Origin: an uncultured virus (IMG/VR IMGVR_UViG_3300005573_000084)
Lineage: Duplodnaviria > Heunggongvirae > Uroviricota > Caudoviricetes
DNA: 64,000 nucleotides
Direction: 5' to 3' (one strand)
Virus record (IMG/VR): IMGVR_UViG_3300005573_000084
The notes beneath the pieces are model-generated. The model was not told the DNA's origin and ran no database searches. It saw nothing but the letters and a program-made list of their open reading frames with translations. The position numbers and the translations under genes are program-made. Shown piece by piece: positions 3,001 through 38,729 of the stretch (position 1 is the stretch's first letter; every line of letters begins with the position of its first letter).

Positions 3001-3130
3001 ATTCTGCACATTTATCCAAAGCATTATCTAGACTATATTCTTCATTTATACTTTTCATAAATTGTTTAATCTGAGCTTCAATTCCGATGACTAAATCTTT
3101 AGTTAGATCATTACTATCTTCAGAGAATTT
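1..3130. repeat. Two-level tandem repeat: 90-bp ankyrin units nested in 750/840-bp super-repeats
   Basis: gaagctcaaca recurs every 90 bp (about 95, 185, 275...). The linker cagagaa(t/c)tt recurs at 31, 781, 1531, 2281 and 3121 (spacing 750, 750, 750, 840 = 6 or 7 x 90 + 210). Confidence 0.95.
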
Positions 3131-3205
3131 CTCAGATAAACCTTCTTTTATAATTTTATTTGATTGTATAAATGGATTATTTGTATTATCTTTTGCTTTT
3201 TTCAT
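1..3205 (-). CDS. Large modular ankyrin-repeat protein (3' end runs off the left edge; >1,068 aa)
   Basis: Manual translation from ATG at 3205 (MKKAKDNTNNPFIQ...) gives the same frame at both ends of the region. It contains 30-aa units such as ELLLKAGADVHAxDDxALRWASxNGHKDVV. Absent from the ORF track because no stop lies inside the window. Confidence 0.9.
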   Translation of the reverse strand, partial: MKKAKDNTNNPFIQSNKIIKEGLSEKFSEDSNDLTKDLVIGIEAQIKQFMKSINEEYSLDNALDKCAEYGKTLFVKFLLKAGADVHADNDYALRWASVNGHKDVVELLLKAGADVHAKDDDALRWASKNGYKDVVDLLLKAGADVHADNDYALRWASKNGHKDIVELLLKVGANVHANDDEALRSATNNDHKDIVELLLKAGADVHAQNNEALIRASIYGYKDVVELLLKAGADVHAKDDDALRWASQNGNKDVVDLLLKAGADVHAQNNEALKLAIENGYKDIAKLLKKYMNDNGKVVKESLFEKFSEESDDLAKDLGIGIEAQIKQFMKSIGEEYTLDNALAECARHGKTLFVKFLLKAGADVHADNDYALRWASYNGHKDVVEILLKARANVHAEDDVALKWASQNGHKDVVELLLKAGADVHVSDDEALKWASRNGHKDVVELLLKAGADIHAQNDYALRWASYSGHKDVVELLLKAGANVHAKDDEALREASRKGHKDVVELLLKAGANVHANNDEALRLASSNGHKDVVELLKKYMNKDSKIVKESLLEKFSEESDDLVKDLGIGIEARIKEFMESIDEEYTLDNALAECTKHGKTLFVKFLLKAGADVHIHGDYALRIASENGHKDIVELLLKVGANVHAYDDYALRWASRYGHKDVVELLLKAGADVNTNDDEALRWASFNGHKDIVELFLKAGANVHAKDDEALRWASRNGHKDVVELLLKAGANVHAYDDYALIRASHNGHKDVVELLLKAGANVHAKDDEALKAASSNGYKDVVELLKKYRNNNGKVVKESLLEKFSEEGDDLVKDLGIGIEAQIKQFMQSMHQEYTTDNALIKCVEYGKTSFVKFLLKAGANVHANDDEALRLASQNGHKDIVELLLKAGANVHAKDDEALRWASFNGHKDIVELFLKAGANVHAKDDEALSWASRNGHKDVVELLLKAGADIHAANDYALRSTSENGHKDVVELLLKAGANVHAKDDEALRMASFDGYKDIVELLLKAGANVHVNNDEPLRLAASNGHKDVVELLKKYMNDNGKVVKESLLEKFSEENDDLTKDL

Positions 3206-3415
3206 ATTTATAAAAATCACTAAGAGAGTTAATCTTTATATTTTTATAAAATAATTTTCTTTCAATTTAACATAAAAATATTTTTGTAACTCTCATTTTT
3301 TATTTTATTTATTCACTAAAATAAAAGAAAATTACAAAAATAAAAATAAAATTTAAAATAATTCTATGATTATTTTAGCAAATAGACACCTTTACAGAAT
3401 TTAATTCATCTTTTT

Positions 3416-14241: not shown

Positions 14242-15888
14242 TTAAAATAAGTTTTTTGAATATATGAGATTTCCTGGAATAGGATTGAATCCCATTGTTT
14301 CAAGAATACGATTAAACGGTTCTATGATAGTTTTTTCAAATTGTAAATCATAATTTACAGGCGGCGCAAATTCATAAGGATAATTTCCAGGAAGAAATGC
14401 AAAAACCTCATTTTCATCCATTGTATAATAATATTTAATTTTATCACCCGTTTTAATAAGATTATATTTCGTTTTCCATTTACTATTTAATAATATATGA
14501 TTATAAACTGCAGCTGCTCTAACATTCTGTGGGCATTTAAGTGCTAATTTTATTTGCTTTCTATCTTCTATACAATATTTTTCATAATCTCCTATTGCTT
14601 GTGTTTTTGCTATATCTTCTGGCATTTGAAATGAGTATTCTCTTTTATACTCTTTTAATTGTTTAACAACACCTGAATAATCCAATTTCTTCTTTTGATT
14701 ACATATCATTTTTATCATTTCTCTTAAAACTTTTCTTGCATATTTAGGTGTTGAACCTTGAACAATTTCAATACCCACAAATTTAATCTTATCTTGAGGA
14801 TTTATATATACTCCAGGATCTTTCCATGCTAAATCTAGAATATATTTCTTTTTAGCTATCATTATAGCCGAATAAGAAATTTTTTCCAGCTCAAGATTTT
14901 GTATATTTTTTGTATGATATTTTTTAGCATATTCTTCGAATTTTTGATTTAAAAAAGAGTTTAATCTTAATTCTTTTATTTTAAGAAAAAAGTCTATAGG
15001 ATTTCCATTATAATCACATGATTTAAGAACTGGATCATATGTAACATAACAAGAATTATGAACTAAAATATCATTTGCAATAAATGTATGAGTTTCATCA
15101 AATACTTCAACATCATATACATATTCACTATTAAAGTTTCCTACTCTTTCACAATATTCAACTTCATCAAAATAAAACTCTAAAGAATCATTAACACATA
15201 AGATTTTATCTCCAACCACAATTTTTTCCGGCTTAACTTTTACTGCTTTATTTTCATTAAATATTATTAACGAATGATCATTTGTAATTAAAATAGATTT
15301 ATTAGATTTAGTTTTTAATTGCCACTTTGGTTTAATAACAGAATGCTTAATTATTCTTACTACATCTGCGTAATATAATCCTTTTTCAGGACTCCAATTT
15401 AAAATTTTATCACTAGTCTTTACCGATTGATGTCCTAAAACTGTAAATTCATTTTCATTACTTTTATTTTCATTATACCACTCTTCAATAGTTTTAATTC
15501 CATTTGTTGTGTTCACGATACTTTTAGCATCAACACTATCTGTATCCATGTAAATAGTAAGTGTTTTTTCATTTATCTTATTTACATAATTTAATCCTAA
15601 TTGTTTATGAAGTTCTTTATCTTTATGCCAATATTCAAAAAAGTACTCATCAATACATTTACTTGCATATTTAGCAACATCTTGGCCTTGTAATGTAACA
15701 GCTTCTGCAATATTAACATTATAATAGCTAAAAAATGGAGATCCTATGGCACCATAAACGGAGTTAATGAAAATCTTGATAGATTGCTCTAGATTATAAT
15801 ATTCTTCATTTAAAGATTTTAAACGAGAGATCTCTGCCCGAAGTTCATCTAAACTACATTTATTATAATCAATATTTGATAATTCCAT
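14242..15888 (-). CDS. Family B DNA polymerase, C-terminal subunit (split gp43-like) with mini-intein
   Basis: Motif B KIFINSVYG, motif C YMDTD|S, KKKY, GIEIVQGSTP; exonuclease domain and motif A are absent. Confidence 0.9.
   Translation of the reverse strand: MELSNIDYNKCSLDELRAEISRLKSLNEEYYNLEQSIKIFINSVYGAIGSPFFSYYNVNIAEAVTLQGQDVAKYASKCIDEYFFEYWHKDKELHKQLGLNYVNKINEKTLTIYMDTDSVDAKSIVNTTNGIKTIEEWYNENKSNENEFTVLGHQSVKTSDKILNWSPEKGLYYADVVRIIKHSVIKPKWQLKTKSNKSILITNDHSLIIFNENKAVKVKPEKIVVGDKILCVNDSLEFYFDEVEYCERVGNFNSEYVYDVEVFDETHTFIANDILVHNSCYVTYDPVLKSCDYNGNPIDFFLKIKELRLNSFLNQKFEEYAKKYHTKNIQNLELEKISYSAIMIAKKKYILDLAWKDPGVYINPQDKIKFVGIEIVQGSTPKYARKVLREMIKMICNQKKKLDYSGVVKQLKEYKREYSFQMPEDIAKTQAIGDYEKYCIEDRKQIKLALKCPQNVRAAAVYNHILLNSKWKTKYNLIKTGDKIKYYYTMDENEVFAFLPGNYPYEFAPPVNYDLQFEKTIIEPFNRILETMGFNPIPGNLIYSKNLF
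15055..15537 (-). mobile_element. Contiguous mini-intein (161 aa) in polymerase motif C
   Basis: Starts at Ser (SVDAKS), block B TNDHS, ends YDVEV...FIANDILVHN, followed by Ser; no LAGLIDADG domain. Confidence 0.9.
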
Positions 15889-15943: not shown

Positions 15944-18472
15944 TTAAATACTAAAATCAATAGTATCTATAAAATCATCAACATTTAAATTTAGATTAGA
16001 TATGTATTCTGGTAATACGTGATCAATTTTCAATTCATCTAGATAATATGCAGCAAATAATTTATTTATTCCATCTTCAGATATCCCAATCTTTATTTTA
16101 TCTTTTGAGAATTCTTCATCTGATGACATTTCATATTGTTTTTTTATACTATTTTTTAGATCTTCATATATTGAATCTTGTTGTAATACAGCCATATATT
16201 CATTAAATGCCTGTAAAACATTTTTCCCTATCTTGTTATACAATGAAGAATCTTCCGAAAATAACGATAACAGTTCTTCTAAATTTGATACTTCGTTAAC
16301 TTTATTAGAAAATTTTAAACAAATGCTCTTAAGATAATTAAATAACTTTTTCTGTTTTTGCTCATCTAAATATTGTAAAATATCATCAAAATCATAATCA
16401 TTTGAAAAATATTCATATAAGACATCATCTGAATTTAAAATATCTTTTACAAATTTTTCATTTAAACTTGACTTATTGAAATATTCAGAAAAGATATACC
16501 AATCATCAAACATTAAATTGTAATAATTTTCACCTTCATATGATAGCTTTTTATCGGCAAAGTATTTTAGATTCGGTATAAATCTAACTCCCATTTTATA
16601 CATAATTTCTACATCGCTTTCATCCCATTCTTTTATAGGTTCTCTTCCTTGTCTTAAAATATATTCTATCCAATTTTTTTTGATTGCGTTGTTTAATTTT
16701 TCATGTAGAATAAATATGGCTGGAGAGATCTCTCCAAATTTAACTGAATCATTAGTATCATGTTCTTGTATATACTTATCTATAATATGTGATAACCCTA
16801 TATTTAAATCTTTATGTATATTAGTATCTTCTGAAAATTTTTCATTTAAAGGTTTTCTATTATTTAAATATGTATAAGATTTTTCACTTTCATTCAAATC
16901 TTTAAATTTTTGCCATTTGGCAATTTCTATTGAAACTTGTACATTTTTTCTCTTACTTGTTTTAGATCTTATTGATAATTTCGCGTAATAAATAACTCCT
17001 GAGAATTCTATATAATATTGTATGTGTACATCCTTACTTTCATTAGAATCTCTTATCTTTATTTTACCATCAAAATTTTCATTTATAGCATCATATAATT
17101 GTATTCCGCCTAATGCCGGAAATATTTCCATATCATTTTCCACCATTTTTTCATCTCCTTCTATGTTTCCTCTTAATAGAAAAAATGTAGGATTTTTTTC
17201 TAATGACAATCCATATCTTACGATATCTGTAAAAATGTTTTTATTATTAACAGCTTTATTTAATATGAACAAAAGCATTTTAAGAGCAGCATATTTCTTT
17301 AATGGCTCATCTCCTCTATAATCATCAATTTCACCTTTTTCTATTACATATTTAAAATGATTAAGTTTTGTTTTAATCAATTCATCTATAAGAATTCTTT
17401 TTTTCTTAATTTCATCTAATAATTTTTTATTGTCTTCAAACCAAGTTTTTTCTTCTTTAGATAGATTATACTCATCTTCAAAATTTGGTTCAAGTCTTTT
17501 AATAAAACCTTTCGCATTTCCAGATTTAGAATATTGTTCTTTTAGAGATATAGCTATTATAAGATTATTTGGATTATTAGAATCCAAATCATTTACAAAC
17601 ATAGAGTTTATTTTTCCTAAACGTAAATTAACATCATCTTCATTTTTCACATTCTCTATAATCTCTTTAATTTTTTCTTCTGTGTCTCCTTTTGGGTTAA
17701 TTAACACGATATCCATAGGGCTCCATTTATCAGGCTTTAAAAAACCAAATATGCCAGAGCCAATTTCCTTTTTTAGATAATCAAATAAATCAGATCTATC
17801 TACTATCCACTTATCCTTTCCAAATTTTGTTTCTCTTAAAAAATTACCTATTGATAATGAATTAAATATAGTGTTAACTAAATTCAAATTATATTGATTA
17901 ACTTCAGGTTTTAAAAAATCTAATACTTCTTCTACATCTTTTTCTTTACATCCAGGTATTCTATTTTCCTCTATATCATCTATAATTTTCTTTAAAAAAT
18001 CTTTATATAACTTATATTTTTCTTCATTTTTAATATTTTTACTAAATGGCTCGTATTTTTCTTTAGATTCATAAAAATAGCATACTAAACATTCTTTAAC
18101 ATTTGTTGAAGAGGAATATTCGTTACTAACTATATCTCCTCGTAAAACAAACTTTTCATCTCTACCATTTATTGTAATAAATACAGTAGGATACTTTCCA
18201 GATAATCCTTCAGGCTCGGGTGCTAATCTAATATTAGGTTTTGATACTGTCCAATTTGGTTCATTTTCTTTAACAATTTGTATAATATCATTCGCAAAAT
18301 CTTCAGGAGTTATGGCGCCCCTTTGTCTTGTTTTAACAGATTTAGGTGATGAACTGTTAGTATATTTTTCTGGAAATTTTTCTATCAATTTTTTTCTTAT
18401 ATCCGAATTCATGAATATATTATTAGAAATAGATTCATATAATCTTGGATAAAATTTTTTAGAGATATGCAT
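15944..18472 (-). CDS. Large hypothetical protein; possible PD-(D/E)xK-like N-terminal domain and internal LNEKFSE motif
   Basis: DKWSPMDIV...IAISLKE; LNEKFSEDTNIHKDLNIG matches the ankyrin-protein linker. Confidence 0.6.
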   Translation of the reverse strand: MHISKKFYPRLYESISNNIFMNSDIRKKLIEKFPEKYTNSSSPKSVKTRQRGAITPEDFANDIIQIVKENEPNWTVSKPNIRLAPEPEGLSGKYPTVFITINGRDEKFVLRGDIVSNEYSSSTNVKECLVCYFYESKEKYEPFSKNIKNEEKYKLYKDFLKKIIDDIEENRIPGCKEKDVEEVLDFLKPEVNQYNLNLVNTIFNSLSIGNFLRETKFGKDKWIVDRSDLFDYLKKEIGSGIFGFLKPDKWSPMDIVLINPKGDTEEKIKEIIENVKNEDDVNLRLGKINSMFVNDLDSNNPNNLIIAISLKEQYSKSGNAKGFIKRLEPNFEDEYNLSKEEKTWFEDNKKLLDEIKKKRILIDELIKTKLNHFKYVIEKGEIDDYRGDEPLKKYAALKMLLFILNKAVNNKNIFTDIVRYGLSLEKNPTFFLLRGNIEGDEKMVENDMEIFPALGGIQLYDAINENFDGKIKIRDSNESKDVHIQYYIEFSGVIYYAKLSIRSKTSKRKNVQVSIEIAKWQKFKDLNESEKSYTYLNNRKPLNEKFSEDTNIHKDLNIGLSHIIDKYIQEHDTNDSVKFGEISPAIFILHEKLNNAIKKNWIEYILRQGREPIKEWDESDVEIMYKMGVRFIPNLKYFADKKLSYEGENYYNLMFDDWYIFSEYFNKSSLNEKFVKDILNSDDVLYEYFSNDYDFDDILQYLDEQKQKKLFNYLKSICLKFSNKVNEVSNLEELLSLFSEDSSLYNKIGKNVLQAFNEYMAVLQQDSIYEDLKNSIKKQYEMSSDEEFSKDKIKIGISEDGINKLFAAYYLDELKIDHVLPEYISNLNLNVDDFIDTIDFSI

Positions 18473-19889: not shown

Positions 19890-21329
19890 TTATTCATCGT
19901 CACCTTCTTCGCTTTTATCCTCTTCGTCATATATATCATGGCCACTCCAAATTTCAATACCATTAACAGTTTCAATATCAGATGTTTCAAAGAGATTTAT
20001 AGTATTAGATTTATGTGTTATTCCACGAGATAATGTTGGATCTGGAAACTTATCAAAATTTTCTTGTGCCTCCTTCAATTCTTTTTCTTTTTCTTTTAAC
20101 TCACCCGTTAATTTTTTTATCTTTTCTTTAGTTTCTTGTAATTCATCTTTACTGAATCTTTTTGATGTCATACTCTCAAGGCGAGAAGAAATCTCTTTAT
20201 CATAAGATTTAAGCCATTCATCTATTTCTTGTATTGTTCTAGTTTTCTGAAGTATAAATGTTATAAATAATTCTTTTGCTTTATTAAATTTAAGATCAAA
20301 TGATAATTTATCTCTTTCATATAAAGTGTTTTTCAATTTTAATCTTGCAAGTTGCCATTTATAATCTTCAAGATACTGTTCAATTGAATCATAAGTTAAA
20401 ACTGTTCCGTCTTTTATAAAAACAATGTTTTCGGTGACAATAATAGAAAATGCTTTATTTATATAGTTAACGATTTCATCAAATTCTATTTGATTTTTAC
20501 CAAGATATATTATATCAATATTTACTTTAATGTTAGAATTATTAATGATCTTTATACTATTTTCATATTTATTTAGAAGATGGTCTAGTTTTTTTAGTAT
20601 AGCTTCATATCTAATAATAGGAGGAATTTCTCTTATACTTATTTTATTATTTTCTACAGTTATGTTAGATGAAATTAACCAGGATTTGTCTACATTTTGA
20701 AACTTTTCTATTTTACCGCTAAAGCCTTCAAAATAAGGGTTTAAGCTTTTTCGATTTCCTTTTAAAAAATCTTCTATATCTTTTAATTTTCTAGGGAGTA
20801 TGGTTGATTTATATCCTACTGCTATACCAACAATAGGAATAACCAAACCTATAGGAACATCTAACCACAATGGATCGTATGGCCCATCAGGCTCTCGAGT
20901 TGTTAAATGTTTATATTTGCTAATTATATTATTTACAGTAGAAGAAAGCCTCACTCCAGTGTATCGTGGAGCCGCCGGAGATGGAGATACTTCAGTTCCA
21001 AAAAATCCATCTCCCTCTAGTATTTGAAGTGCGTTTCCAAAGGGTCTAGCTAATTTATTAAGAGCATTTATACATGCAGCATCACCATGATGATAGCCAT
21101 CCTGTATAACCTTTCCAATTATTGTAAGAGTTTTCTGAAAACTGGTTGGCGAATTTTGTAATATATACCTTTGAACCGGAGTAAGAGCATCATAAAAATT
21201 AGGAATTCCTCGTTGCTCTAATACATATATAGCATAATCTCTAAATTTTGAATCAATAAATTTTGAAATTGGAAGGCGAATAATTTTTTCTTTATGTTTT
21301 GGTTTTGTTAAATCTTTTGATTTACGCAT
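19890..21329 (-). CDS. Type II topoisomerase subunit A (gp52/GyrA/ParC-like)
   Basis: RGIPNFYDALTPVQR, YHHGD, catalytic AAPRYT, GIAVGY. Confidence 0.93.
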   Translation of the reverse strand: MRKSKDLTKPKHKEKIIRLPISKFIDSKFRDYAIYVLEQRGIPNFYDALTPVQRYILQNSPTSFQKTLTIIGKVIQDGYHHGDAACINALNKLARPFGNALQILEGDGFFGTEVSPSPAAPRYTGVRLSSTVNNIISKYKHLTTREPDGPYDPLWLDVPIGLVIPIVGIAVGYKSTILPRKLKDIEDFLKGNRKSLNPYFEGFSGKIEKFQNVDKSWLISSNITVENNKISIREIPPIIRYEAILKKLDHLLNKYENSIKIINNSNIKVNIDIIYLGKNQIEFDEIVNYINKAFSIIVTENIVFIKDGTVLTYDSIEQYLEDYKWQLARLKLKNTLYERDKLSFDLKFNKAKELFITFILQKTRTIQEIDEWLKSYDKEISSRLESMTSKRFSKDELQETKEKIKKLTGELKEKEKELKEAQENFDKFPDPTLSRGITHKSNTINLFETSDIETVNGIEIWSGHDIYDEEDKSEEGDDE

Positions 21330-30711: not shown

Positions 30712-31227
30712 ATGATTAGAAGTGATATAGTAATTAATTGGGAAACTAGACCAAGAATAATAACCATATTAGCTCCATCTACTGAAGTAATATTACAAGA
30801 TCTTTATGATACCATTAGAGCTTTAGAAGATGATCCTGAGAATATGGATGATGATTATATTGCTTCTGGATCGGGGAAAGAACCTTTAGGAGGAGGTGTT
30901 TATGTTGGTTTAACAGTTACATTAAATAATGCTCAAGTTGCCTTTGAGAGTAGACCTGGGCCAGAATTTGTGCAATGTAAAATATATGGAGGAAACTTAG
31001 TGGCATTTGATAAAGATGGAAATACTATTTCTCCTGTTCATGCTACACCATATACACAAGTTATTTTAACATCATCATCTTCTGCAATTATAATAGGTGT
31101 AGAGCCAACATCAATTAGAAATGCTGTATGGGATGCATCTATTCTTAATCATCAGATACCAGGTACTACAGGAAAAACATTATCTGACATAGTAAAAAAG
31201 ATTATTCCATTCTTTTTTGCCAAATAA
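30712..31227 (+). CDS. Putative virion structural protein
   Basis: QDLYDTIR...SGKEPLGGG and IRNAVWDA motifs; same island. Confidence 0.6.
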   Translation: MIRSDIVINWETRPRIITILAPSTEVILQDLYDTIRALEDDPENMDDDYIASGSGKEPLGGGVYVGLTVTLNNAQVAFESRPGPEFVQCKIYGGNLVAFDKDGNTISPVHATPYTQVILTSSSSAIIIGVEPTSIRNAVWDASILNHQIPGTTGKTLSDIVKKIIPFFFAK

Positions 31228-31232
31228 AATAT

Positions 31233-31610
31233 TTAAAATAGAGGTTTATTCTTAGAAAAATTCTCAGTCTCATCAGATATATTCCACTCTTCTACTTTTA
31301 TTCCAAGTTTCTCTTCTATCCAATCTGCTACAATTTTTCTATGGCAAAATGTGTTATCTTTTTCCCAACATAAAAGAACATTATCTTTAAGAGTATTATA
31401 TATGCTCTGAGCATCTAATTTATCTAAAACTTCTTTTCTATAAGATTCTTTGTATTGTTCCCATGTAATTTGTTTATTTTTAATCGCAAAAAATAGATTT
31501 CTTGGAGGAGCTAAAGCTGGAAATGTTGCTCCATTCCAATCATAAGGAGGGTATAAACATATTGCCACTCCCATATCACCTGTATAACATTTAAAACAAC
31601 TAGTTTTCAT
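31233..31610 (-). CDS. DUF488-family protein
   Basis: LAPP, W..Y...Y..EVL, LLCWEK..FCHR motifs. Confidence 0.75.
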   Translation of the reverse strand: MKTSCFKCYTGDMGVAICLYPPYDWNGATFPALAPPRNLFFAIKNKQITWEQYKESYRKEVLDKLDAQSIYNTLKDNVLLCWEKDNTFCHRKIVADWIEEKLGIKVEEWNISDETENFSKNKPLF

Positions 31611-31792
31611 GAAAAGAATTCATAGAATATTCCCATTATTACCGCGCATACAAAGAATATGAGGGCAAATTCAATAAGCATATTTTTAAGATGTTTTTTA
31701 AAAGGTTCATCGGGTATCATAAATTTAGATAAAAATACTCCTGCTGATACACAGAGCAAATACAATAAGAAAATTCCTACAAAAAGTTTCAT
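31607..31792 (-). CDS. Small 2-TM membrane protein
   Basis: Two hydrophobic helices; ATGA overlap with the DUF488 gene. Confidence 0.6.
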   Translation of the reverse strand: MKLFVGIFLLYLLCVSAGVFLSKFMIPDEPFKKHLKNMLIEFALIFFVCAVIMGIFYEFFS

Positions 31793-31828
31793 AATTATTT
31801 ATTTTTAATGGTTTTATAATTTAGTTCA

Positions 31829-32662
31829 TTATTTAAATCCTATTTTAACTTTATCTTTATCTTTCAATTTTGCATTATTATCTTTTCCATAAAAATAAAT
31901 ATCTGAAAGTTTCATTGGTTCTTTAACTTCAACATCTTTATGCCCTAAAGATTCTAATAATTTCTTTGATTTTTCAATACTTAATCTTTCAAATTTATAA
32001 TGCATTAATAATCTTCCTTTTCTTAATAAAGCGTCATCTATATTATCGGCAGATGTGTTAAATGTTGCAATTACAGATATATTTAAACAATCTGAAAGAA
32101 GCCCATCAGTTAAATTGAGAATATTTGTTACAGCAGAGCTTCTTCCCTTTTCTCTTTTTTCTAGAGCAGGTTCTGCATCTTCTATTATTAAAATTGAATT
32201 ATTGTTATTCATCAAAAATGGTATAAACGCGGGATCTGTTATAGAACTTACCATATCTGAAGAAATAAAAATAATATCTTTCCTCAATTTAGAAGCCAAA
32301 TATCTTAAATATGTAGTATTATGAGACAAAATGCCATTAGTGTAATATCTTTTATTAGATTCAGAATCTAATTCAAGATCATACATATTTTCATATTTAG
32401 ATGTTTTTTCTATCGATAAAACTTTAGTTGGGCCATCAATAGATTCAATAATATCATTAGGTTTTAAATCTTTAACAAAAACCTCTTTATTATTACTAAA
32501 AACTATATGATTATCTGCACAAAAAAGATCATGTAATTCAGTTTTTAAATGATAAATTTGATATTTAACCGTTTTATGAATTGCTTCAATATTAACCCAG
32601 CCACTATCAGTTAATACTTCGTATTCATCTATCTTTTTTGATTCAATAAATTTTTTATTCAT
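31829..32662 (-). CDS. Split-intein C fragment (115 aa) fused to the AAA+ ATPase C-extein
   Basis: VLTDSGW...CADNH...YDLEL...YYTNGILSHN|TT, then Walker B IIEDAE, LNLTDGLL, ATFN, IDDALLRKGRL. Confidence 0.9.
   Translation of the reverse strand: MNKKFIESKKIDEYEVLTDSGWVNIEAIHKTVKYQIYHLKTELHDLFCADNHIVFSNNKEVFVKDLKPNDIIESIDGPTKVLSIEKTSKYENMYDLELDSESNKRYYTNGILSHNTTYLRYLASKLRKDIIFISSDMVSSITDPAFIPFLMNNNNSILIIEDAEPALEKREKGRSSAVTNILNLTDGLLSDCLNISVIATFNTSADNIDDALLRKGRLLMHYKFERLSIEKSKKLLESLGHKDVEVKEPMKLSDIYFYGKDNNAKLKDKDKVKIGFK
32318..32662 (-). mobile_element. IntC of an atypically split intein (long C fragment)
   Basis: Contains blocks B, F and G, ends His-Asn, +1 residue is Thr. Confidence 0.88.
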
Positions 32663-32692
32663 TATTTAAAAATTTTATCTTAATAAAAATTG

Positions 32693-33628
32693 CTAAATAT
32701 CCATCAAATCTTCAATGTTAATTTCTTCAGATATACCGGTTTTTTTATTTCTTACTATTATCTTGGTTTTTCCGATTACACATTTTCCTACTCCAGGTTC
32801 TCCACTTAATATAACTAAACTTGTTTTATTTTTATTATTTAAACCTGAAATAATTTTTTCGGAAAATTCTTTAAAATCATCATTGTAATTTTTATCTATA
32901 TCTATCTTAACCTTTTTTATATCAAAACGTATTTTATCAAATCCACCATTAGTCTGATAAACTATATATATTTTATTCTTTTCAACAGTAGTTTTTAAGA
33001 AATATTTTCTAATTATACACATTAACTTATAAAAATCTGAATTTGGGTCTTTCTCTTCTTTTGGGTCATAATATATTATACAGCCATGTCCATCTTCAAC
33101 ATAAAGTAGTTTTTTAGAGAATGCTATTGATAACATAGAAGTAATTATTGGTTTTGAGTGAGCTGTGTAATTCTCATAACTAATGGATTTATTATAAGAA
33201 TATATAGGAGGTTTCAAATATTTTAAAATATTATTTACAAATCTAGATGAATCAAAATAAGTTATTTTAAGAATATTAGGAAAAATATTATTGATTTTAT
33301 TATACGCATATGAAAAAAAGTTTGATTCAGAATACGCAGATAAATATGATTCAAATGCTTTATTAGCATCCGGAAAAAATTTATTAATTTCATAATAAGG
33401 AAAATTTTCTATAGAAGAAATACTTTTCTTGGGATAGTATTTAATATTAAATAGAGATGTTTGTTTTAAAGTTTCTTCTTCAAATCTATCAGACTCATTA
33501 GCGTTTTCAAGATTTATATTCATATCATTTTGTATTTCGTTTAACACAACTTTATTAACCTCCTCTAATAATTGAGGAGATAACTTTATATTCTTTTCTT
33601 CCAAAAATTTCATTTCCCTTCTAGCCAT
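32693..33628 (-). CDS. AAA+ ATPase N-extein fused to a 29-aa intein N fragment
   Basis: Ends ILSGEPGVGK|CVIGKTKIIVRNKKTGISEEINIEDLMDI*. Confidence 0.88.
   Translation of the reverse strand: MARREMKFLEEKNIKLSPQLLEEVNKVVLNEIQNDMNINLENANESDRFEEETLKQTSLFNIKYYPKKSISSIENFPYYEINKFFPDANKAFESYLSAYSESNFFSYAYNKINNIFPNILKITYFDSSRFVNNILKYLKPPIYSYNKSISYENYTAHSKPIITSMLSIAFSKKLLYVEDGHGCIIYYDPKEEKDPNSDFYKLMCIIRKYFLKTTVEKNKIYIVYQTNGGFDKIRFDIKKVKIDIDKNYNDDFKEFSEKIISGLNNKNKTSLVILSGEPGVGKCVIGKTKIIVRNKKTGISEEINIEDLMDI
32696..32782 (-). mobile_element. IntN of an atypically split intein (29 aa)
   Basis: Block A C-V-x-G-x-T-x-I directly after the Walker A lysine; ends IEDL like TerL-type atypical IntN fragments. 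Confidence 0.85.
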
Positions 33629-34149
33629 TTTTTTCTTTTATTTGATGAATCACCGAATGCTATTTCTAAAAAACGATTAGCGCTTCTATCCTCAAGAATC
33701 ATAAACAACGTTTTATTATTCATCACATACTCCCAATCCTTTAAAGAAAGAGAACCGAGGCCCTTTAAATATTTAACGTTACTAACCTTATGTGTTTTTG
33801 CAAACTCATTAAAATCATCCAGTGTAAAAAAATACTTTTTCTCTTTTTCAAAATCACAAGATACTAAAGGAGTTATTATCCTATAAAGTTTTTTATTTTC
33901 TATTATATGAGGAAACCATTTATGAAAAAAGTTAATAATTAAAGATGATATATGTTGGCCATCACAATTATGTGCCAATACTTTATGATCTTCATCTAAA
34001 TAAATGTAAAATGTATGATCATCTTTTACAGTTATATCATACATAGTTGTTTCCTTTTTAACTTTTCTTATAGATGTAGGATGAGCTAGTTTAAATTTCG
34101 ATAAATCTATATTCATACTTCTATTATTTGTGTTTTTTATTTCATTCAT
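33610..34149 (-). CDS. Split-intein C fragment fused to the topoisomerase II B-subunit C-terminal part (gp60-like)
   Basis: MYDITVKDDHTF...LAHN|CDGQHI..., ITPLV, KYLKGLGS, RKKWL. Confidence 0.9.
   Translation of the reverse strand: MNEIKNTNNRSMNIDLSKFKLAHPTSIRKVKKETTMYDITVKDDHTFYIYLDEDHKVLAHNCDGQHISSLIINFFHKWFPHIIENKKLYRIITPLVSCDFEKEKKYFFTLDDFNEFAKTHKVSNVKYLKGLGSLSLKDWEYVMNNKTLFMILEDRSANRFLEIAFGDSSNKRKKWLEGK
33967..34149 (-). mobile_element. IntC of a canonically split intein (50-61 aa)
   Basis: Blocks F and G, terminal His-Asn, +1 Cys; basic N-terminal half. Confidence 0.85.
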
Positions 34150-35869
34150 TTTTTAAAAGTAAAAAATCAGTTTCTCTTAAATCTTTTGCAAAAATTTCTT
34201 GTATCTCATTATCTCTATATACGACTAAAATATGATACTCAGAACAATTTATTTTTTTACCATCAATTTCTATTTCAATGCTTTCTTCCTTTTTTGTTTC
34301 TACTATTTTTTCTATATTTTTAAATTCACCAGAATGTGTTAAAACTTTATCACTATATGTTAAATCTTTAATCTTTTTGTTACCATTTTCTGTAATTACT
34401 AATGAATTTTCATCTATACAATCTTCATCTGTAGCAATTATAATTTTATCAAATGTTGGCAACTTTTTGTTTCCAGGTTCTATTTCTAATATGCTTATTA
34501 TATCCATCCATTCAGTGCTTGCGGTAAGATCAGATAATTTACGAACATTTTTTATTTTTCCTTTTATTGCATATATACCTTCATTCTCAGAATCTCTTGC
34601 TTGTTTAAGAGATCCTGATGCAGATAACCCCTCAGTTATATAAAGATGTTGTTTATATCTGGATGGAGGAGTATATTTATCAGATATTTTACGCTTAGAT
34701 TGTTTTTGAGCTCTTTTTATTTTATTTATATTTTCATTATGCAATCTATCTTCTATAGCCTTTTCTATATTTTTAGATATTTGAGAATTTTGTAAAACTC
34801 TTAAAAGTTTACTCTTGAATCTTTCAGTTAATTGTTCTTCTATTTCTCCTCTAGATACTGCAAATTTTGTTTTATTTTGATCTGCAAATCTCATTAATGT
34901 AGAAGGTACATTTAGAATAATTAGTGTTTCATAGAAATGATGAGAAAAATTATATTTAAAGTAATCATTAACCCAATCATTTACAATCTTCTGGTGAATT
35001 CCAGTACACTGAGATCCATTAACAAATGATAATGAACATGAATTCTCATAAGATTCCCATAAATAAATTGAGCCGAAAGAATTTGAAATAACAATATGTT
35101 CTTTTGGAATAAAATTTGATATCACTTCTATGGGATATTCATTTCCATTTTCTATAAAATATCCATGAAGGTTAAGCTTACTAATAACAGGGTCTCTTTC
35201 GATAAGAAACTTTTTAAATGACAGATAAGTAATTATTAAATCTTTATCCCATTTATAATCTGGAAATATATCTGGAGATGGTATAAATGATATTTTAGTT
35301 CCAGTTTTTTCATCAGAGTTTCTTTTTCTTATTTCTTCATCTACAACTTTAAAATTATCCCAAACAAATCTTACATAATGCGTTTTATTAACTGTTTCAA
35401 CAGCAAATTTTTGTGACAATATATTCGTTACAGCAGCACCCAGACCAAAAGTTCCAAGTATATTCGTAGAAGTATCTATAAAATTTGACCCCGCATGAAG
35501 ATCTTCTAGAGCAGTACGAACAACATTCTTATTTGTTTTAGGATGTTTTTTTGCAGCATTATGAAAACCCAATCCTTCATCTATTACAGTAACCTCATTA
35601 TTATCATTGTTAATTTTAATAATGATATTTTTCATTTTTCCTTTACAGCGCTTAGCTTCATCTAATGCATTTTCAAGTATCTCTATCAGTAATTGATAAA
35701 ACCCCGGAGAATATTTTTTTTCTATATTTAAAAGTTTTCCATTAATAACTAACGGATATTTTTCTTCTATGTTAGCAATTTGCCCCACATATAATGTAGG
35801 ACGCAATCGTATAGCATCAAAATTACTAAGTGCTATAATTTCTTTATTATTAGTAATATTTTTCAACAT
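34142..35869 (-). CDS. Type II topoisomerase B subunit (gp39/GyrB-like) N part fused to an intein N fragment
   Basis: IRLRPTLYVG, EILENALDE, DEGLG, LHAGSNF, GTFGLGA, TEGLSA, KGKIKN, IIIATDED|C. Confidence 0.93.
   Translation of the reverse strand: MLKNITNNKEIIALSNFDAIRLRPTLYVGQIANIEEKYPLVINGKLLNIEKKYSPGFYQLLIEILENALDEAKRCKGKMKNIIIKINNDNNEVTVIDEGLGFHNAAKKHPKTNKNVVRTALEDLHAGSNFIDTSTNILGTFGLGAAVTNILSQKFAVETVNKTHYVRFVWDNFKVVDEEIRKRNSDEKTGTKISFIPSPDIFPDYKWDKDLIITYLSFKKFLIERDPVISKLNLHGYFIENGNEYPIEVISNFIPKEHIVISNSFGSIYLWESYENSCSLSFVNGSQCTGIHQKIVNDWVNDYFKYNFSHHFYETLIILNVPSTLMRFADQNKTKFAVSRGEIEEQLTERFKSKLLRVLQNSQISKNIEKAIEDRLHNENINKIKRAQKQSKRKISDKYTPPSRYKQHLYITEGLSASGSLKQARDSENEGIYAIKGKIKNVRKLSDLTASTEWMDIISILEIEPGNKKLPTFDKIIIATDEDCIDENSLVITENGNKKIKDLTYSDKVLTHSGEFKNIEKIVETKKEESIEIEIDGKKINCSEYHILVVYRDNEIQEIFAKDLRETDFLLLKNE
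34145..34420 (-). mobile_element. IntN of a canonically split intein (92 aa)
   Basis: CIDENSLVITENG..IKDL...VLTHSG...CSEYH...AKDL, then stop; acidic C-terminal half. Confidence 0.85.
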
Positions 35870-35930
35870 GTATGTTTCTTGTAATTTTTATATATTTTAT
35901 ATTTACAAAAAGTTTTTTGAAAAACGTCGA

Positions 35931-36248
35931 TCATCGAGAGTGTCGAGATACCGTTTTTTTAGTATTAACCAACCTATATCCTTTAGAAGCTCTTTCAAAA
36001 TATTGCTCTTTTTCTTCTTTTGGTAATGAATTTAATGCTATTTTTTTGTTTTTATTTTTTTCATATGATAATTTTTTCTTATTAGTACTATTCTTGTTTT
36101 TAAGATCAATATAATTGATTACATTAAGTAAAAAAGCAAATGACATCAATAGAGCCAATAAAAAATATCCACTCTCAAATGTAAATAGAGCCGCAATTAA
36201 AGTTGTGATAATTGATATCCAATACATAGTAGTTACAAAGGTTCTCAT
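35931..36248 (-). CDS. Small membrane protein
   Basis: Two N-terminal TM helices and a basic tail. Confidence 0.6.
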   Translation of the reverse strand: MRTFVTTMYWISIITTLIAALFTFESGYFLLALLMSFAFLLNVINYIDLKNKNSTNKKKLSYEKNKNKKIALNSLPKEEKEQYFERASKGYRLVNTKKTVSRHSR

Positions 36249-36390
36249 TTGTTTTTTATTTTATATTAAAAATTCATAATAAGTTTTATGGCAAACGTTG
36301 ATCATTAAGTTTATCGAGAAACTCTCTTTTAACAATTGAAAATGTTTTCGTAATTGTTTTTTATTTTATATACATAAGTTGATACATAGT

Positions 36391-37239
36391 TTATTTTACA
36401 TTAAAAAATAAATTTTCTGCTGTTTGCCACAGTTTAATGTTAAAGTCAATATTTCTGGCAGCATTGTTTATACCACGAGGCTTTGTTCTACGTCCGGAAA
36501 GAGTTTGACGATCAAATTCTCCTTTTACGAGACGTTCTTGAATGATATTAAAAATTGTCCAAAGATCATTTCTATTATCTTCTTCACGAATAGGCTTAAC
36601 GATTTGCGCAGGGTTTACTATTTTTGTAGCTTTTACCATATCAATAGAACCATCATCCTTAATGAATACGTGAGGTTCTCTAATTGCGATTGCATTTATT
36701 GCTAACTCCTCTTTTTGAGATTGATTAAGAATGATATTTTGCATTTCAGAAACATGTACTCCAATGTTTTTATACTGATCCGAAATAACTTCCAATATCT
36801 TCTTAAGCTCTTCTGTCTTTATTCCTATGTGTCTGAGCTTAACAGCAGTAAACATTCCTGGCATAGAAACTACAAGACCATTTGTGCAAATGAGTCTAAA
36901 CAAACCAAGAAAAATCTGAGCATTAGAAACTCCATTATGCGAGTTATCAAGAATGATTTGTGGTCTGACTTTATCAGACTTAATGTCTAAGAAACCAAGA
37001 TCTGGATGTACAAAACGAATAACATGTCTAGCATAGTCATTAGACCCATGTTGACGAACATGTGTAAGTTGCCAGCCAAGTTTAAGAAAAGATTCTATCA
37101 ATTCTCTGGTTGAAACAAAAGAATATCGATCAGAAACTTTAGGACTCTTGGTATCTGCAAAAGCAGCAGGAGCATAGATCTTAAGATCTTCAATTCCAGA
37201 AACTGGATAACCAATGTTAGTTAATAATTTTGTTTCCAT
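36391..37239 (-). CDS. DUF932/DUF945-family protein
   Basis: SDRYSFVST, NSHNG, GLFRLICTNGLV, DLWTIFNIIQE, N..LW motifs. Confidence 0.85.
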   Translation of the reverse strand: METKLLTNIGYPVSGIEDLKIYAPAAFADTKSPKVSDRYSFVSTRELIESFLKLGWQLTHVRQHGSNDYARHVIRFVHPDLGFLDIKSDKVRPQIILDNSHNGVSNAQIFLGLFRLICTNGLVVSMPGMFTAVKLRHIGIKTEELKKILEVISDQYKNIGVHVSEMQNIILNQSQKEELAINAIAIREPHVFIKDDGSIDMVKATKIVNPAQIVKPIREEDNRNDLWTIFNIIQERLVKGEFDRQTLSGRRTKPRGINNAARNIDFNIKLWQTAENLFFNVK

Positions 37240-37459: not shown

Positions 37460-37855
37460 ATGATACTTCCCGGAAATGAAATAAATACATTACCAGTCAT
37501 ACAATATGATGAGGTCAAAGGAACTATACATATAAAAGGTAGATCAATAGGTTTACAAACTCAAGAATACTTTGAAGAGTTTTTTACTTATTTCAAAGAT
37601 TGTGTAGAAAAATTTCCAATAAATTTAGATATCACATTTGAGTTAGATTACTTTAACACAGTAACTTCTAAAATGATATGTCACTTTCTGTACATGGTAA
37701 AAACTTATATAATAGATAAAGGATTTAAAGCTAACATAACATGGATATACGAAGAAGATGATGAGGATCAAAAGGAATCGGGTGAAAACTTTCAAATATT
37801 AACAGGTTTAAAATTTAATATGATGAGTAAGCCTTCAAAATTTGAGAGATTTTAA
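37460..37855 (+). CDS. SiaC-family (DUF1987) regulatory phosphoprotein
   Basis: P.I..D...G.I.IKGRS, LDYFNTVTSK, W.YEEDDED..ESGE.F. Confidence 0.8.
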   Translation: MILPGNEINTLPVIQYDEVKGTIHIKGRSIGLQTQEYFEEFFTYFKDCVEKFPINLDITFELDYFNTVTSKMICHFLYMVKTYIIDKGFKANITWIYEEDDEDQKESGENFQILTGLKFNMMSKPSKFERF

Positions 37856-38128: not shown

Positions 38129-38273
38129 TAAACAATTGTGTATATATATTTATGAAAAAAAAAAATAAAAATAATGACTTAAGAGCATTATTTTATTTTT
38201 TTTAATTGTTTAACATTGGCTGGATCTTATGACTGGCCTAACTAAAATAAACTTATCTAAGGAGGGTTTAACT

Positions 38274-38729
38274 ATGACAAACATTGCAAAATTCATTCAA
38301 TCAGATTTTAGCAGAATGCTTGAACCGTGGGACATCCTTTTCAAGGATATTTTCTCTACAGATTCCTTTTTTCTTCCTATAACAAATTCTGAAATTCATT
38401 ATCCAGTAGATATCTATGAAGATAAAAAAAATATGTTCATAGAAATTGCTGCTGCTGGACTAAATAAAGAAGATATTGATATTGAGAAAGAAGACAGCAC
38501 AATATATGTATCTTATTCAAAAGAAGAAAAAGAAGAAAAAGAAGAAAAAGAATTTAACTACTTTAAGCGAGGAATTGCTAGAAGATCATTTGATTTTAGT
38601 TGGAAGCTTTCACCTGATAAATTTGATTTAGATAAAATAGAAGCAACAATGGATAAAGGAATCTTAAAGATTCAAATTCCTAAAAAAGCTGCATCTGAAA
38701 TTGTAAAAAACAAAATTAAAATTAAATGA
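38274..38729 (+). CDS. Small heat-shock protein (Hsp20/alpha-crystallin)
   Basis: YPVDIYE, IEIAAAGL.KEDIDI, RGIARRSF, A.MDKGILKIQIPK; AAGGAGG upstream of ATG 38274. Confidence 0.93.
   Translation: MTNIAKFIQSDFSRMLEPWDILFKDIFSTDSFFLPITNSEIHYPVDIYEDKKNMFIEIAAAGLNKEDIDIEKEDSTIYVSYSKEEKEEKEEKEFNYFKRGIARRSFDFSWKLSPDKFDLDKIEATMDKGILKIQIPKKAASEIVKNKIKIK

Follow-up and report, generated by a model that had tools for sequence, protein, structure and literature searches.

Two putative natural split inteins, one canonical and one atypical, in adjacent topoisomerase and AAA+ ATPase genes of an uncultured T4-like phage

In the 64,000-nucleotide stretch of DNA analysed here (hereafter the window), which belongs to an uncultured virus of the Caudoviricetes (IMG/VR record IMGVR_UViG_3300005573_000084), four consecutive and tightly packed open reading frames (ORFs) on the minus strand span positions 31829–35869 and appear to encode two proteins in halves, namely the large subunit of a type II topoisomerase (Topo2L) and an AAA+ ATPase. 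The ORFs read, in order, as the N-terminal half of Topo2L with an N-terminal intein fragment (IntN) of 92 amino acids (aa), a C-terminal intein fragment (IntC) of 50–61 aa with the C-terminal half of Topo2L, the N-terminal half of the ATPase with an IntN of 29 aa, and an IntC of 115 aa with the C-terminal half of the ATPase. This layout had been claimed in an original prediction made from the sequence alone, and all four ORFs were recovered on the minus strand at the coordinates claimed; no ORF was found between the halves of either pair, in line with the accompanying claim that no endonuclease gene separates them. The features are the following, with the topoisomerase intein numbered 1 and the ATPase intein numbered 2.

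34142–35869, minus strand: ORF1, 575 aa.
34421–35869, minus strand: Topo2L/GyrB-like N-extein (topoisomerase II large subunit), residues 1–483 of ORF1, with the C-terminal end ...IIIATDED; phrog_543 at E 9.8e-69, Pfam HATPase_c and Toprim above their cut-offs.
34145–34420, minus strand: IntN1, 92 aa, C484–E575 of ORF1, followed by the stop codon at 34142–34144; match to 6qaz, and to Intein_splicing below the cut-off.
33610–34149, minus strand: ORF2, 179 aa.
33967–34149, minus strand: IntC1, 61 aa if started at the first ATG (34149) and 50 aa if started at M12 (34116), ending ...VLAHN (H60-N61 of ORF2); match to TIGR01443.
33613–33966, minus strand: Topo2L C-extein, residues 62–179 of ORF2, starting with the +1 Cys as C62-DGQHISSLI...; Pfam TOPRIM_C at E 6e-11, phrog_543 and phrog_7229.
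32693–33628, minus strand: ORF3, 311 aa.
32783–33628, minus strand: AAA+ ATPase N-extein, residues 1–282 of ORF3, ending in the Walker A sequence GEPGVGK; aligned to the N-fragments of the related contigs L001 and L012.
32696–32782, minus strand: IntN2, 29 aa, C283–I311 of ORF3, CVIGKTKIIVRNKKTGISEEINIEDLMDI, followed by the stop codon at 32693–32695; conserved in L001 and L012.
32663–32692, minus strand: spacer of 30 nucleotides (nt) with in-frame TAG, TAA and TAA, read from the sequence.
31829–32662, minus strand: ORF4, 277 aa.
32318–32662, minus strand: IntC2, 115 aa, M1–N115 of ORF4, with block B at C48-A-D-N-H52 and a terminal S-H-N115 (...ILSHN); matches to CatC and VidaL.
31832–32317, minus strand: AAA+ ATPase C-extein, residues 116–277 of ORF4, starting with the +1 Thr as T116-TYLRYLASKL and carrying the Walker B sequence IIEDAE; Pfam AAA at E 6.5e-6, above the cut-off.

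The N-extein of ORF1 shares 27–28% identity with T4-like Topo2L proteins, and the C-extein of ORF2 aligns to the residues that follow DSDA or DEDP in the intein-free homologues of L001 and of another related contig, L010; the nearest solved relatives of the AAA+ ATPase are AFG2, Cdc48/p97 and BCS1. The true start of IntC1 is probably M12 (‘MNIDL’, giving a 50-aa IntC), since two relatives begin there and its ATG is aligned to the codon at which the IntC of contig L020 starts. For ORF3 a start at M6 (33613) is possible, where the codon would share an ATGA with the stop of ORF2; the copy of its protein in the protein collection is 306 aa long.

Comparison with the unsplit 605-aa Topo2L of Escherichia phage ECML-134 placed the topoisomerase insertion inside the metal-binding motif D486-A-D-H-D-G of the TOPRIM domain, between the equivalents of D488 and H489. 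The insertion is in frame at a conserved site which carries no intein in three homologues, those of L001 (602 aa, ASDSDADGEH), L012 (603 aa, ASDSDPDGEH) and L010 (602 aa, IIIATDEDPDGQHI, with the site ATDEDPDGQH), and the +1 Cys of the intein replaces one residue (A or P) of these proteins. Both genes are uninterrupted in L010, where the 416-aa ATPase (GDPGTGKTTYIRYLAGKL) reads GDPGTGKTTYIRYL at the corresponding site; the 411-aa ATPase of L020 reads GEPGTGKTTWVRYL, and GxPGxGK-TTY is unbroken in both. For other intein-free ATPase representatives (407–438 aa), the match to ORF3 ends at query positions 283–285. As the intein-free homologues have a single A or P at the site of the +1 Cys and an unbroken GxPGxGK-TTY, the arrangement is more than a chance resemblance. 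The motifs ATDED-CDGQHI and GEPGVGK-TT, which splicing had been proposed to rebuild, are found in the predicted spliced products and fit the intein-free relatives, which read through both sites.

The residues of a class 1 intein are present in intein 1, with C484 in ORF1 and H60-N61 followed by C62 in ORF2, and all aligned relatives keep them. In block B, S-E-Y-H (S543, H546), the His is present and the Thr is changed to Ser, and the aligned segment of gp41-1 is likewise S-x-x-H; this naturally split intein (6qaz, E 1.9e-4) is the closest PDB sequence to IntN1, with the C-S-E-Y-H segment aligned. A contiguous 140-aa allele of the topoisomerase intein was found on the 1341-bp metagenome contig L018, with 74% identity to the N-junction piece of the window (IntN1 plus five extein residues) and 79% to the IntC1 core (alignment A5). 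The fold was modelled on this contiguous homologue in place of the window halves, and the AlphaFold2 model (mean predicted local distance difference test value, pLDDT, of 75.6; predicted template modelling score of 0.66) has its only internal low-confidence stretch at residues 96–102, where the window is split. The top Foldseek matches of the model were all inteins or HINT domains, among them AceL NrdHF (E 9e-9), gp41-1 (E 4e-8, template modelling score 0.66–0.79, 26–28% identity) and Aes123 PolB1 (E 9e-8). The relatives of this intein come only from metagenome contigs and the protein collection, and none of the 139 pattern matches obtained by scanning viral contigs with the IntN1 piece was a relative. 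Judged by these similarities, intein 1 is a putative gp41-1-like mini-intein, broken at the loop where endonucleases usually insert. The ORF of L018 itself starts with another IntC (132–266; ...ANGIISHN followed by SAAGSVKQ), which marks a second split-intein site in Topo2L, at an ITEGL-SA motif.

Intein 2 carries C1, C-A-D-N-H, H-N and the +1 Thr, which are invariant in alignment A3. Its break is of the atypical kind, with an IntN of 29 aa that holds block A only and an IntC of 115 aa that holds blocks B, F and G. The closest PDB sequences to IntC2 are CatC, a consensus atypical split intein (6dsl_B, E 4.7e-5 over residues 13–114), and VidaL (6vgv, E 4.2e-4), and the C-A-D-N-H segment aligns to block B of both. 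Complex prediction with residues 268–311 of ORF3 and 1–128 of ORF4 gave a score of 0.81, compared with 0.03 for the best of three controls, with IntN2 docked on IntC2, agreement between runs in at least 77% of contacts and a partner pLDDT of at least 70; among solved complexes 116 of 157 attain the mark applied, as against 2 of 215 mismatched pairs. Since like complexes have been solved (6dsl, 6vgv), this pass may reflect likeness only and not binding. By sequence, intein 2 is assigned to the atypical family of AceL-TerL, Cat and VidaL, with a predicted break after block A.

We consider both gene pairs, with a probability of roughly 80%, to be genuine natural split-intein loci of a large T4-like phage, which are expected to trans-splice and represent the end state after loss of a homing endonuclease gene (HEG). 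The anatomy of the loci, the precision of the insertion sites, the conservation of the breaks, the likeness to known families and the evolutionary intermediates form the observed basis of this reading. One canonical and one atypical natural split intein had been proposed, and both are borne out by intein-free, contiguous and HEG-containing relatives, by the matches to PDB sequences, by the fold model and by the complex prediction.

Several observations weigh against this interpretation. Neither intein keeps the Thr of block B, which is Ser in intein 1 and Ala in intein 2, and a search of PDB sequences with IntC1 alone returned nothing significant (best E 0.6, with the intein 2jmz only at E 1.2). 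Profile searches with hidden Markov models, which had been suggested as a check, gave low scores: TIGR01443 (intein_Cterm) was just passed by ORF2 (15.7 bits, cut-off 15.6) and just missed by ORF4 (14.6 bits), TIGR01445 reached 10.7 bits for intein 1 against a cut-off of 24.5, and Pfam Intein_splicing gave 20.9 bits for ORF1 (E 3.3e-4) and 21.9 bits for ORF4 (E 1.7e-4), below its cut-off of 35.8 bits. Half-domains of inteins are expected to score low on such models. Junction 1, between ORF1 and ORF2, lies one base, within a run of six A (A6), from a fused frame; the junctions were mapped with assembled contigs in place of raw reads; and sequencing run X2 holds a minor contig of 144 nt (34069–34206; depth 10.7, main form 31.6) with four substitutions and six gap letters, the position of the gap not being placed.

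At junction 2, ORF3 and ORF4 are in the same frame, and the three in-frame stop codons of the spacer make the break unambiguous. Readthrough or an alternative genetic code at this junction is ruled out by the same three stops (TAG, TAA, TAA), and reading TGA as Trp at junction 1 gains only six residues before a TAA.

At junction 1, ORF1 and ORF2 share 8 nt, from the first ATG of ORF2 to the TGA stop codon of ORF1, with the frames one base apart and the A6 run just upstream. This junction needed checking, as the deletion of one A would fuse ORF1 to ORF2; the break would then be a sequencing or assembly error, and the topoisomerase intein would in reality be a contiguous, cis-splicing mini-intein such as the natural allele of L018. 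The relatives make such an error highly improbable. Searching with IntN1 yielded seven non-self proteins (P0005–P0011; 574–577 aa, IntN identity 62–74%), all of which stop at the same position, give or take a few residues, and differ in their tails (NE, KE, ND, NQ, K or NDKNI; alignment A1), and both non-self proteins found with IntC1 (P0002 and P0003; 170 and 168 aa) begin with MNIDL, corresponding to M12 of ORF2. In contig L020 an ORF of 332 aa lies between the halves of the topoisomerase intein, and in contig L019 a stretch of more than 200 nt separates the stop codon of IntN from the start of another gene, so that neither pair of halves can be fused. Two contigs of run X2, possibly the sample of origin, (records 9 and 15) cover both junctions without differences; run X4, which stems from a study other than that of the possible source runs, provided a 210-nt contig that bridges junction 1 (34031–34240, two other letters, no gaps) and a 151-nt contig across the spacer of junction 2 (32561–32711, no differences). 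The proposed mapping of the junctions thus found no fusing indel in the assembled contigs that bridge them, the minor X2 variant with its six unplaced gap letters standing apart. In sum, the break of intein 1 is canonical: the ORFs are separate, the position is conserved in seven of seven relatives, the HEG of L020 sits at the same point, and the break coincides with the low-confidence loop of the L018 model.

A +1 ribosomal or transcriptional slip in CTT TTA AAA AAT G could also yield a fused, cis-splicing topoisomerase precursor, besides or instead of trans-splicing, and a +1 shift on AAA-A does read ATG-AAT-GAA in the ORF2 frame. We give slippage hardly any weight, as the A site holds neither a slow codon nor a stop, the A run is only six long, the tails of the relatives differ, and L019 and L020 keep the same split without such an option.

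Relatives of the two genes were found at different stages of an intein and HEG life cycle. For the topoisomerase, intein-free (L001, L012, L010), contiguous (L018) and split genes are present, the latter either with the 332-aa ORF (L020) or without an ORF, as in the window and its seven protein relatives. For the ATPase, intein-free genes (L010, L020) stand beside split genes with an intervening ORF of 338 aa (L001) or a remnant of 80 aa (L012), which both match phrog_22677 (E 4.3e-21 and 4.7e-11). HEGs of 338–410 aa lie between the halves of atypical inteins in L001, L013 and L014. The intervening ORFs of L001 and L020 have a common C-terminal nuclease core (38% identity over 72 aa, E 5e-9). 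As we read them against the family description in the accessible text of Dassa et al. (PMC2677866), these intervening ORFs are probable Vsr-like HEGs; the name rests on the nuclease core common with the HEG of L020, on the same PHROG and on the likeness to the described family. A Pfam scan of the 338-aa HEG of L001 returned no family, and that of the L012 remnant only sub-threshold hits to REase_MTES_1575 and DUF1477. Directly upstream of the intein-free Topo2L gene of L001, and overlapping its start, lies a 313-aa DUF7487/homing-endonuclease-like ORF (1624–2565; phrog_3339, E 9e-19), a free-standing nuclease beside an allele without an intein.

The 30-nt spacer at junction 2 is identical at 24 of 30 positions to the last codons of the 338-aa HEG of L001, with one 3-nt deletion, and we regard it as the footprint of the 3′ end of a lost, presumably Vsr-like HEG. 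The 25 nt between the ORF1 stop codon and M12 (34117–34141) agree at 17 of 25 positions with the 3′ end of the L020 HEG, and M12 falls on the start codon of the L020 IntC; as this second stretch is short and AT-rich, we take it as a possible footprint. We propose that an intein first invaded each conserved catalytic motif, that a free-standing Vsr-like HEG would then have invaded the intein gene and broken the intein in two, and that the HEG would later have been deleted, leaving its last few codons and a downstream start codon provided by the 3′ end of the element. The fractured-gene feature sensu Dassa et al. 2009 is present in L001, L013, L014 and L020; in the window, only an 8-nt overlap (or 25 nt) and the 30-nt spacer separate the halves. 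The window would therewith represent the derived, HEG-less state, and its two loci appear to match step III (HEG loss) of the fractured-gene model, as given in the accessible text of PMC2677866.

With respect to function, each half-protein would be translated separately from one tightly packed operon, and IntN and IntC would associate into the HINT fold. Trans-splicing of class 1 would then proceed through an N-S acyl shift at Cys1, attack by the +1 Cys in the topoisomerase or the +1 Thr in the ATPase, and cyclisation of the terminal Asn, joining the exteins into a Topo2L of 601 aa with an intact TOPRIM DxD and an ATPase of about 444 aa with an intact Walker A, as predicted from the spliced sequences. 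As splicing would restore the TOPRIM DxD metal site and the Lys-Thr of Walker A, both enzymes would depend on it. We infer splicing, its efficiency and the orthogonality of the two pairs from the sequences.

Alternatively, the halves could associate without splicing, with the intein fragments serving as interaction domains like the MobA/MobE tails in split T4-type Topo2L and Aeh1 NrdA. The block B Thr is non-canonical in both inteins, which would suit this alternative, and according to the accessible text of a preprint (bioRxiv 10.1101/2022.08.31.505936), T4-type Topo2L is a working non-covalent complex of split ORFs and the split Aeh1 NrdA assembles via tails derived from mobile elements. We nevertheless judge it improbable, since every aligned relative keeps Cys1, the His of block B, the His-Asn at the C-terminus and the +1 nucleophile, and since 140–150 unspliced residues would very likely disrupt catalysis, the inteins sitting within the DxD metal site and the P-loop. 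The same non-canonical block B residues are moreover found in the aligned segments of gp41-1, CatC and VidaL. Both gp41-1 and VidaL are active splicers. The same holds for Cat according to the accessible text of a review (PMC11766414).

Phage genomes tolerate broken genes, and the split genes might be decaying pseudogenes of a phage that relies on host enzymes or other copies. All four ORFs are intact, as is the gene of the partner subunit (gp52-like, 19890–21329); the split state is kept in many diverged relatives; and intein and extein are equally conserved (62–74% identity for IntN1 and 58–72% for the extein among relatives). Decay is therefore very unlikely, and trans-splicing remains the preferred reading.

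That the two inteins are mutually orthogonal is a reasonable expectation on topological grounds, as their break points and families differ. The original prediction had further raised a post-translational control point, for which no support was obtained, as what selfish elements leave behind (intein, HEG invasion, HEG loss) accounts in full for the arrangement. A naturally co-evolved orthogonal pair in one cytoplasm, in which splicing of one or both inteins may also be conditional, for example on the redox state of Cys1 and Cys+1 in the topoisomerase intein or on temperature, is conceivable although unlikely; temperature comes into consideration because several of the runs that contain the locus are labelled as hot-springs metagenome. 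Were this the case, assembly of the phage topoisomerase and the neighbouring ATPase would be gated after translation.

The atypical family is well represented in the collection searched. Searching proteins of 152–485 aa with IntC2 gave 1010 proteins (protein clusters) at E ≤ 0.001 from 1027 candidates. Among the best 120 of these 1010, 101 have an ...HN-T/S junction at residue 94–145, on which ground we take them to begin with an IntC; in one more the junction stands at residue 292, and 18 fell outside the restrictive junction pattern. The exteins of the listed matches belong to Pfam AAA, AAA_2/ClpB_D2-small, DnaB_C or Terminase_6N. In L013 and L014, Clp-like ATPases carry inteins of the atypical family with endonuclease ORFs of 380 and 410 aa between the halves; in L015 an intein of this family is contiguous in the P-loop of TerL; and in L016/L017 (2598–5657) a DnaB-like helicase lies in three pieces, with an atypical split intein at the P-loop (15-aa IntN, CVHPSTKIKVRIRKV) and a second, canonical split intein further downstream, which amounts to an atypical and canonical pair within one gene. 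A HMMER search with ORF3 gave 391 representatives at E ≤ 0.001; the match runs on across the IntN (query end at least 303) in 31 of the 149 non-self ones listed, and 28 of these 31 end at most six residues from their own C-terminus.

The window is AT-rich (about 24–34% G+C) and holds a T4-like replication and recombination module with a UvsX-like recombinase, a DnaB/gp41-like helicase, SbcC/SbcD-like genes and the C-terminal half of a family B polymerase, together with a baseplate OB-fold protein and the gp52-like subunit of the topoisomerase. Since related contigs are up to 259,840 bp long (L005), the window is most readily understood as a piece of a large, uncultured tailed phage. A DUF488 gene (125 aa, 31233–31610, minus strand) and a DUF932 gene (282 aa, 36391–37239, minus strand) flank the topoisomerase-ATPase pair. 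Because the gene order is kept as DUF932, Topo2L, AAA and DUF488 in L010, as DUF932, Topo2L and AAA in L020, and as Topo2L and AAA with DUF488 further along in L012, the AAA ATPase is regarded as a conserved neighbour of Topo2L. A scan of 31200–36500 for promoters and terminators was uninformative (32 promoter-like sites with 41.2 expected, one terminator-like site with 0.8 expected).

Elsewhere in the window, the C-terminal half of the family B DNA polymerase (14242–15888, minus strand, 548 aa) carries a third intein, a contiguous mini-intein (Intein_splicing at residues 128–278, E 3.5e-7, below the cut-off), which by eye extends from S118 to N278 within a YxDTD-S motif, with Ser1 and Ser+1 as a nucleophile pair without cysteine. 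As this ORF begins near motif B, and the 842-aa ORF upstream (15944–18472) has no Pfam or polymerase match, the N-terminal half of the polymerase seems to lie elsewhere. Just beyond the topoisomerase operon, on the plus strand, are a homologue of the SiaC-family regulatory phosphoprotein (37460–37855, E 1.3e-21) and an Hsp20/alpha-crystallin gene (38229–38729, E 2.9e-15). An ORF of at least 1073 aa (2–3220, minus strand) that runs off the window contains ankyrin repeats (Pfam Ank_2, E 2.8e-171, 16 stretches), an unusual feature in a phage. Two runs that cover almost the whole of 31829–35869 and are possible sources, and the later run X3 from another study, are labelled as hot springs metagenome, a label that is notable at about 26% G+C.

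Split inteins associated with endonuclease genes were described by Dassa, London, Stoddard, Schueler-Furman and Pietrokovski in 2009 (PMC2677866), in whose accessible text eight host enzyme types are covered, with topoisomerase, gyrase and ATPase unmentioned, and a terminase intein broken at an unusual point (C part of 122 residues) as well as an HEG-less locus, gp41-7, are reported. Relatives of the window loci agree with that account in having a free-standing Vsr-like HEG between the intein halves, and the window spacers fit the HEG loss of its model, which leaves adjacent halves and a start codon derived from the 3′ end of the element (PMC2677866, accessible text). The window differs from that text in its host proteins, in that both loci are HEG-less and stand side by side in one operon, and in that relatives of the same genes display all stages (no intein, contiguous, split with HEG, remnant and HEG-less).

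Intein 1 resembles gp41-1 (6qaz, 6riz) in its canonical break, an IntN of about 90 aa, a shorter IntC, Cys1 and the S-x-x-H of block B. In contrast to gp41-1, which resides in a DnaB-like helicase, intein 1 sits in the TOPRIM DxD of Topo2L and has a +1 Cys, a longer IntC (50–61 aa) and low sequence identity. The MobA/bypass cassette of T4 gene 39/60 likewise targets Topo2L and its TOPRIM domain, a likeness limited, like the following points, to the text accessible from the preprint on T4 gene 60 (bioRxiv 10.1101/2022.08.31.505936). MobA insertions always lie in the Toprim domain, at sites of aa 466–473 in RB14 numbering, compared with the D488/H489 equivalents (ECML-134) for intein 1, if the two numberings match; and MobA splits leave no intein and assemble non-covalently, unlike the window. 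The preprint further mentions in passing a phage Topo2L ORF from a metagenome that is interrupted by a VSR endonuclease with Hint/HintC on its flanks; there the HEG is kept, in contrast to the HEG-less window. The supposition that the topoisomerase host was new is thereby contradicted. No publication on an intein in ‘topoisomerase II large subunit’ came up in a literature search that covered few subscription papers and included no search for inteins in this AAA family.

Intein 2 shares with AceL-TerL, GOS-TerL, Cat-TerL and VidaL a short IntN confined to block A, a long IntC and insertion at a P-loop. The IntN/IntC sizes given in the accessible text of PMC11766414 are 25/104 for AceL-TerL, 37/115 for GOS-TerL and 30/104 for the consensus Cat-TerL, and PolB16 OarG has an IntN of 15 aa (PMC10189870, accessible text). 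The TerL inteins differ from intein 2 in host, a terminase in place of an AAA+ ATPase of unassigned function, and, according to the accessible table of PMC11766414, in that position 1 is Cys or Ser and position +1 is Cys, as opposed to the Cys1/Thr+1 pair of intein 2. Natural atypical split inteins are called rare in the accessible text of this 2025 review, as compared with about a thousand clusters in at least four P-loop hosts in the collection searched here.

For intein engineering, one canonical and one atypical split intein (29-aa IntN, Cys1/Thr+1) that coexist in the same cell, with native junctions known, would be plausible orthogonal ligation parts. For intein evolution, the same two genes display every stage of the intein/HEG life cycle across related phages, and the lost-endonuclease footprints would lend direct sequence support to the HEG-loss step of the 2009 fractured-gene model. 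The accepted view of what inteins are or do is unchanged. The window inteins add new members to two known split-intein families, in hosts that are little or not described in print, and the biology itself is known; what is new is that both split types stand together in one operon, that lost endonucleases have left footprints, and that the atypical family is documented as abundant.

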